NCBI RefSeq assembly: GCF_003334405.1
Contig: NZ_QOWM01000005.1
From: Escherichia coli
GTDB taxonomy: Bacteria > Pseudomonadota > Gammaproteobacteria > Enterobacterales > Enterobacteriaceae
DNA length: 64,000 nt
Reading direction: 5' to 3' (one strand)
Shown one piece after another: positions 27,133-27,452 of this stretch. Both the position numbers and the translations under genes were made by a program. Every line of letters starts with the position of its first letter. Position 1 is the first letter of the stretch. Under the pieces are notes generated by a model. The model worked only from the letters and a program-made list of their open reading frames with translations. It was not told where the DNA came from and did not search any database.

Positions 27133-27208
27133 ATTTTATTGAGAGAAGAATTTGGAGCGGGAAACGAGACTCGAACTCGCGACCCCGACCTTGGCAAGGT
27201 CGTGCTCT
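27133..27208 (-). tRNA. glyY: tRNA-Gly (GCC), copy 3 in transcript order
   Basis: exact 76-nt reverse complement of the E. coli tRNA-Gly(GCC) sequence I recall, ending CCA; the V/X/Y symbol is assigned by position only. Confidence 0.93.
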
Positions 27209-27264
27209 ACCAACTGAGCTATTCCCGCTTGGGTGGTCTGTGCTTTGCAGCACTTTTCAAATTT

Positions 27265-27340
27265 TGGAGCGGGAAACGAGACTCGAACTCGCGACCCCGA
27301 CCTTGGCAAGGTCGTGCTCTACCAACTGAGCTATTCCCGC
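27265..27340 (-). tRNA. glyX: tRNA-Gly (GCC), copy 2
   Basis: identical 76-nt tRNA-Gly repeat; symbol assigned by position only. Confidence 0.93.
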
Positions 27341-27376
27341 TTGGGTGGTCTGTGCTTTGCAGCACTTTTCAAATTT

Positions 27377-27452
27377 TGGAGCGGGAAACGAGACTCGAAC
27401 TCGCGACCCCGACCTTGGCAAGGTCGTGCTCTACCAACTGAGCTATTCCCGC
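27377..27452 (-). tRNA. glyV: tRNA-Gly (GCC), copy 1 (promoter-proximal)
   Basis: identical 76-nt tRNA-Gly repeat; symbol assigned by position only. Confidence 0.93.

Follow-up and report, generated by a model that had tools for sequence, protein, structure and literature searches.

Three identical tRNA genes stand in tandem in a 64,000-nucleotide stretch of Escherichia coli DNA (contig NZ_QOWM01000005.1 of assembly GCF_003334405.1; hereafter the window), and one and the same sequence follows the first two of them. What is this array, and how did its two spacers come to be identical? We find that the region is, with very little room for doubt, the known chromosomal glyV-glyX-glyY operon of E. 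coli, and that it is best explained as a whole by three identical tRNA-Gly(GCC) genes in one precursor, by gene dosage and by recombination between repeats. The array itself is a textbook locus and ordinary except for its identical spacers; the one point left in doubt is the reality of the perfect duplication of the spacer.

Anatomy of the tandem array

On the minus strand, ARAGORN called three tRNA-Gly genes, all with the anticodon gcc, and each copy scored 69.1 bits against Rfam RF00005 (E=4e-14; gathering score 29). They are the genes annotated as glyV (27377..27452), which is identical to its K-12 namesake, glyX (27265..27340) and glyY (27153..27228). Direct sequence comparison confirmed that the three are identical over all 76 nt, and each terminates in an encoded CCA. 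The first spacer (type A, 36 nt; 27341..27376) is identical to spacer 1 of K-12, and the second (27229..27264) is an exact copy of it, so that the same 36-nt sequence, AAATTTGAAAAGTGCTGCAAAGCACAGACCACCCAA, lies 3' of both glyV and glyX. A repeat finder accordingly reported a 112-nt unit in two copies, 27151-27262 and 27263-27374, at 100% identity, which is far beyond chance. The array thus consists of this perfect unit twice over and then a third tRNA; after glyY, the match to the spacer sequence is lost beyond 2 nt.

These measurements bear out the first-pass annotation in its essentials, namely a triple tandem tRNA-Gly(GCC) on the minus strand, made of three identical 76-nt genes with a shared 36-nt sequence after the first two. 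Its coordinates require correction at one end. It had placed the array at 27133-27452 with spacers of 56 and 36 bp; the high end, 27452, and the 36-bp spacer stand, but the low end lies at 27153, the true span is 300 nt and not 320, and both spacers measure 36 nt. The 56-bp spacer and the start at 27133 are each 20 nt off, and 27133-27152 is exactly 20 nt of unique 3' flank, AATTCTTCTCTCAATAAAAT. The first-pass annotation also left the operon unnamed and made no mention of the adjacent datA locus.

Identity, synteny and differences from K-12

A 1-kb query around the array matched all of the complete RefSeq E. coli genomes (5,426/5,426), with orn, tRNA-Gly and queG annotated beneath the match. 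In K-12 MG1655, the counterparts are glyV, glyX and glyY (b4163-b4165; 4,392,360-4,392,658), which lie between orn and yjeV/queG. The window shows the same arrangement, with the orn open reading frame (ORF) upstream on the minus strand (27664..28353) and the convergent queG ORF downstream on the plus strand (25636..26883), and is colinear with MG1655 from ulaG to past efp. No observation speaks against this identification. tRNA-Gly(GCC) reads the codons GGC and GGU. A mutant glyV allele is said, in the title of a 1997 report by Murphy and Humayun, to be the basis of the mutA mutator phenotype.

Compared with MG1655, the window carries 75 substitutions over 44.8 kb, of which 71 fall within positions 24-7334. 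We considered whether the window might itself be K-12, which would make the identical spacers an event of laboratory time; the 75 single-nucleotide differences over 44.8 kb rule this out. The 71 substitutions of the first 7.3 kb, on the side from ulaG to yjfM, form tight clusters, and the next 37 kb hold only four, two of which are spacer changes. This contrast between 24-7334 and 7335-44813 looks like the boundary of a recombination mosaic.

Around the array, the nearest other substitution relative to MG1655 is at 20879, and on the other side there is none up to 44813. Locally, the two genomes differ only at the three positions that turn the second K-12 spacer (type B) into type A and by one extra G at 27538-27544. 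The three tRNA genes, the leader, the promoter region apart from the G run, spacer 1, the 3' flank and the orn and queG neighbours are the same in both. In contrast, spacer 2 of K-12 is a 35-nt type B sequence that departs at three positions (window 27244, 27247 and 27257) from the 36-nt type A spacer of the window, and K-12 has six G ahead of the -35 hexamer where the window has seven. Below, we denote arrays by their spacers in order of transcription, A-B for K-12 and A-A for the window.

Predicted transcription and processing of the precursor

Whereas the identity, anatomy, synteny and population variation of the array are shown directly, the promoter, terminator and processing sites of glyVXY are inferred from the sequence in combination with published work on the operon. 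An A/T-rich, UP-element-like tract, GATAAAAACGCAAAAAAAACTTTTTT, lies upstream of the putative -35 hexamer (27545..27570, minus strand) and is identical in K-12; tracts of this composition can serve as UP elements in stable-RNA promoters. Between it and the hexamer is the run of seven G (27538..27544, minus strand) that alignment with MG1655 revealed. A search with the flank returned only one record at 100%, the top-ranked one, and the seven-G form appears to be rare. The extra G might reflect misreading of a homopolymer during sequencing, or it could shift the UP-like tract by 1 bp relative to the -35 hexamer.

The putative promoter itself (27501..27537, minus strand) would comprise a -35 element TTGCAG (27532-27537), a gap of 16 nt, a perfect -10 element TATAAT (27510-27515) and a GC-rich discriminator, GCGCCTCCC (27501-27509). 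A consensus promoter scan of 26500-28000 called no promoter, because the -35 hexamer matches the consensus at only three of six positions. An A/T tract, a weak -35 element, a perfect -10 element and a GC-rich discriminator together make the layout that is typical of growth-rate-regulated stable-RNA promoters. From its putative start, the transcript would open with a 5' leader of about 50 nt (27453..27502, minus strand) that is predicted to form a small hairpin (-8.4 kcal/mol, z = -2.6). Consistent with this assignment, the glyVXY precursor studied in vitro by Kime et al. begins at CCGTAACGACGC, just downstream of the putative promoter (PMC3985628).

Each spacer presents an AU-rich, single-stranded segment, AAAUUUGAAAA, directly after the CCA, and then a 5-bp hairpin, GUGCU-GCAA-AGCAC, with a predicted fold of -7.2 kcal/mol (z = -2.2). 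About 25-55 nt after glyY, a candidate terminator hairpin, CCACAGCGACGCGAUGCGUUAUUGCUGG, is followed by a U-run, UUUUUGUUGU (27098..27130, minus strand); a simple terminator scan did not list it. Its fold of -14.3 kcal/mol has a modest z of -1.8 and is retained when the whole precursor is folded. The leader, spacer and terminator hairpins all fold better than shuffled sequence.

Taken together, these features suggest that one precursor is most likely transcribed from a stable-RNA-type promoter downstream of orn and that it would end at the hairpin and U-run behind glyY. Published work treats glyVXY as a single precursor (PMC3985628), and Kime et al. found that a glyVXY precursor with the same end sequences is cleaved in vitro by RNase E through direct entry (PMC3985628). 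With the AU-rich spacer starts, these data fit cleavage in the spacers; RNase E would cut the precursor in the AU-rich start of each of them. RNase P would then mature the 5' ends and 3' exonucleases would trim back to the encoded CCA, both of them established steps of tRNA maturation. The three copies would serve the gene dosage of an abundant tRNA.

The operon resembles other polycistronic tRNA precursors, which carry several tRNAs per transcript and are separated in short AU-rich single-stranded spacers beside structured regions (PMC3985628). It differs in that glyVXY yields three copies of one tRNA. With all three products the same, the array serves dosage alone, and unequal recombination finds in it a perfect substrate.

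Copy number and spacer variation among E. coli strains

The first-pass annotation had proposed a comparison of the array across strains. Array length was read from the span of a query made of the flanks only. Sixty records were drawn at even intervals from the ranking, and 59 of them gave full spans. K-12 length was found in 38 of these 59 (a span of 994 or 995, or 992 where the match ended 2 nt short), another 19 were 121 nt longer and two contained two tRNA genes. Three copies are present in about 95% of the 59-genome sample, in which no four-copy E. coli array occurred. An apparent four-copy array in strain CUPF06 resolved into three copies plus a 121-nt insert.

The extra 121 nt of the longer arrays are an insert in the glyV-glyX spacer. 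In E. coli HCP8S3_I1 (L002:760-880), for example, the insert lengthens this spacer from 36 to 157 nt inside the tRNA precursor. A total of 1,606 records, or about 30% of the complete E. coli genomes, contain it at an identity of at least 95%, and it occupies one to five places per genome, the other places at 60-80% identity. ERIC (IRU) repeats are imperfect palindromes of about 120-127 nt that occur dispersed, with several copies in a genome; compared by eye with the published ERIC2 primer, the insert agrees at 18 of 22 positions. The corresponding spacer of the window, 27341-27376, lacks it.

A 485-nt query covering the whole array, with matches judged by their span and number of pieces, found the exact three-copy A-A array of the window in 12 of the 5,426 complete E. 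coli genomes. By the same query, at least 40 of the complete genomes have two-copy arrays with an A spacer. Two-copy arrays with a B-like spacer or with the 121-nt insert also exist. Three copies are thus the norm in E. coli, contraction to two occurs, and the homogenized state of the window is rare.

Some of the two-copy E. coli records could nevertheless be assembly collapses of the perfect repeat. A small number of sequencing series, the AVS isolates from wastewater among them, account for most of the copy-number and A-A variants. Four AVS isolates, AVS0226, AVS0787, AVS0453 and AVS0753, have genomes of about 5.285 Mb and presumably represent one clone; two of them carry two copies and two the three-copy A-A array. 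This split reflects either very fast real copy-number change or assembly collapse of the perfect 112-nt repeat, and since apparently clonal isolates disagree, part of the variation may be technical.

Related arrays in other Gammaproteobacteria

To place this variation in a wider frame, one genome per species was scanned for two adjacent copies of this tRNA, which yielded at least 120 loci. Copy numbers were taken from the 96 arrays, among the matches listed, that were not cut by the end of the locus: 35 have two copies, 54 have three, one has four, one has five and five, all from Aeromonas, have seven. Among the matches listed, Enterobacterales have orn 150-250 bp upstream in the same orientation, as do Aeromonas, Idiomarina and Algicola, and a convergent queG lies about 270 bp downstream in most Enterobacterales. 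The orn-linked arrays of Citrobacter, Enterobacter, Pantoea, Providencia, Photorhabdus, Aeromonas and others thus share with the E. coli operon the same or nearly the same tRNA and the upstream orn gene, but vary from two to seven copies and have lineage-specific spacers of 22-60 nt.

In 43 three-copy arrays, median spacer identity is 0.89 within an array as opposed to 0.53-0.54 between species, and in 25 of the 43, spacer 1 is closest to spacer 2 of its own array. Identity within arrays that so exceeds identity between species indicates concerted evolution by recombination within the array. The within-array similarity, the range of two to seven copies in other species and the two-copy E. coli genomes all support the earlier proposal that these direct repeats are prone to copy-number change by homologous recombination.

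A hairpin is retained in many of the spacers that measure at least 33 nt, with stems that vary by lineage (GTGCT/AGCAC, ATGTC/GACAT, GTGTC/GACAC, GGCC/GGCC and TGGCT/AGCCA). When the spacers were folded one by one, those of 33 nt or more gave a median z of only -0.8, with 27 of 69 below -1.5, and those shorter than 33 nt had no hairpin and no fold signal. RNAalifold found no consensus structure for a set of 14 spacers, because MAFFT had set the hairpins out of register. The spacer hairpin is therefore common but not universal, and favoured but not required. Among Enterobacteriaceae, inter-tRNA spacers (L031, L034, L056, L059, L070, L100 and others) have common ends, AAATTTGA... and ...CACCACCCAA, around a small hairpin. 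The stem may differ even between the two spacers of one array with the pairing kept, as with ATGTC/GACAT and GTGTC/GACAC.

Origin of the identical spacers

In none of the 43 three-copy arrays from other species were the two spacers identical, which argues that the state of the window is either recent or technical. It would have arisen either by a recent conversion, or by contraction and then re-expansion, or else as an effect of assembly. From time to time, recombination between the identical 76-nt direct repeats deletes, duplicates or converts the 112-nt unit, and the identical spacers of the window are the trace of one such event, or of a step in assembly that imitates it. Two biological routes can be envisaged. 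Spacer B may have undergone gene conversion by spacer A. Alternatively, deletion of the unit formed by spacer B and a tRNA would leave a two-copy array with an A spacer, and subsequent duplication of the unit formed by a tRNA and spacer A would restore three copies.

We give considerable weight, short of actually favouring it, to the explanation that the second A spacer, possibly together with the extra G at 27538-27544, is an artefact of assembly or polishing and that the true genome carries the common A-B array. Within about 6 kb on each side, the three B-to-A changes and one change of homopolymer length are the only differences from K-12. The rarity of the exact A-A array (12/5,426) is compounded by its clustering in particular sequencing series, among them the four AVS isolates of near-identical size, about 5.285 Mb, that divide evenly between two-copy and three-copy A-A arrays. 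Moreover, one hybrid assembly of the K-12 derivative J53 is A-A, and another J53 record matches at a K-12-like 99.6%. Several observations speak against an artefact, however. Two of the three changes are substitutions that recreate spacer A exactly, as expected of gene conversion or unequal crossing-over but not of random read error. The A-A records span several independent studies and hosts, and long reads easily cover a 300-nt array. Finally, the existence of two-copy arrays with either type of spacer makes real recombination in the array plausible.

The more specific proposal that A-A is a genuine allele, produced by a change from three copies to two and back to three (A-B to two-copy A to A-A) that recurs on the time-scale of clonal diversification, strikes us as rather unlikely. 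The co-occurrence of two-copy A and A-A arrays in close relatives fits this second route, but assembly collapse fits it equally well.

Readings other than a tRNA operon

Whatever the history of its second spacer, the array is read here as the glyVXY operon, and two further accounts of it can be set aside. The first starts from the open frames that cross it. On the plus strand, these are 27033..27329, 27127..27441, 27233..27463 and 27345..27581, with four more on the minus strand; they measure 76-104 codons and their repeated peptides mirror the 112-nt DNA repeat. The first-pass annotation had attributed repeated artefactual ORFs at 27033..27581 to the array, and such ORFs do exist there. That these frames, open on both strands as they are, encode real small proteins and that the tRNA-like repeats are secondary is exceedingly improbable: every one of the frames crosses, in sense or antisense, tRNA genes with Rfam scores of 69 bits, the peptide repeats merely reflect the DNA repeat, no coding sequence is annotated there in MG1655 or in five other inspected E. 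coli records, and the tRNA is exactly conserved across genera whereas the spacers vary freely in sequence and also in length, and so break the frames. We reject this account on the tRNA overlap, the lack of annotation and the frame-breaking spacers; the ORFs are artefacts.

The second account holds that a mobile element integrated here or left a remnant, in the form of a genomic island linked to a tRNA or of an attachment site in duplicate. It is likewise of negligible probability and is rejected. In its favour, integration often targets tRNA genes, duplication of att sites can give direct repeats, and an ERIC-like insert of 121 nt resides in spacer 1 of about 30% of E. coli genomes. Against it, that insert is not in the window; from rsgA-orn to queG-nnr, the flanks follow K-12 colinearly and contain no additional DNA; each repeat comprises a complete tRNA gene and a spacer rather than a partial 3' tRNA end; and the order orn-array-queG is kept across Enterobacterales.

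The neighbouring datA locus

The glyVXY operon points towards a cluster of DnaA boxes just downstream, outside the operon, that motif scans place at 26885..27134 and that, judged by its predicted sites and its position, is datA. As described, datA contains one IHF site flanked by two DnaA boxes of high affinity that point the same way, lies downstream of glyVXY and queG (PMC5742627) and may be inhibited by transcription through it (PMC5742627). The predicted elements in the window conform to this description. Two consensus DnaA boxes, TTATCCACA (27059-27067, minus strand) and TTATTCACA (26897-26905), share the minus-strand orientation, and a predicted IHF consensus site matching WATCAANNNNTTR (26990-27002) lies between them.

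Two weaker candidate boxes complete the cluster, TCATCCACA (26885-26893, plus strand) and ATATCCACA (27126-27134, minus strand). The latter overlaps the terminator-like hairpin of glyY and is the sole physical overlap between datA and the operon. In addition, the sequence TTGTAAACA at 27071-27079 may correspond to 'box 7' of datA, which is of low affinity. The locus, at 94.7 min, titrates DnaA and promotes hydrolysis of DnaA-ATP. The match covers the two consensus boxes, the IHF consensus and the location just downstream of glyY and queG, and datA differs from the array in being a protein-binding DNA element outside the tRNA operon.

Two further observations concern the surroundings. The annotated 17-codon ORF yjeV, MRFYFYSQAVDESGVTR (26866-26919, minus strand), shares sequence with the 3' end of queG and spans two of the datA DnaA boxes; what has been annotated there may be regulatory DNA and not a gene. 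About 29.7 kb from the array, at 57187-57262 on the plus strand, lies a single gene for tRNA-Phe(GAA), presumably pheU of the K-12 map.

Implications

For the locus as such, our findings have little importance beyond correct annotation: annotators should give the three genes the names glyV, glyX and glyY, drop the overlapping ORFs and recognize the adjoining DnaA-box cluster as datA. In a small way, the identical spacers also call for caution. Collapse of a perfect 112-nt repeat by short-read assemblers is plausible, and recombination can alter it, so the copy number that public genomes show at this site should be treated with reserve. Copy-number changes, if real, would make the locus a handy natural reporter both of unequal recombination and of selection acting on the dosage of tRNA genes. 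Should the passage from three copies to two and back to three prove true, it would mean that selection holds the dosage of tRNA-Gly(GCC) at three genes, and that it does so at a site that transcribes towards datA, a locus of replication control.
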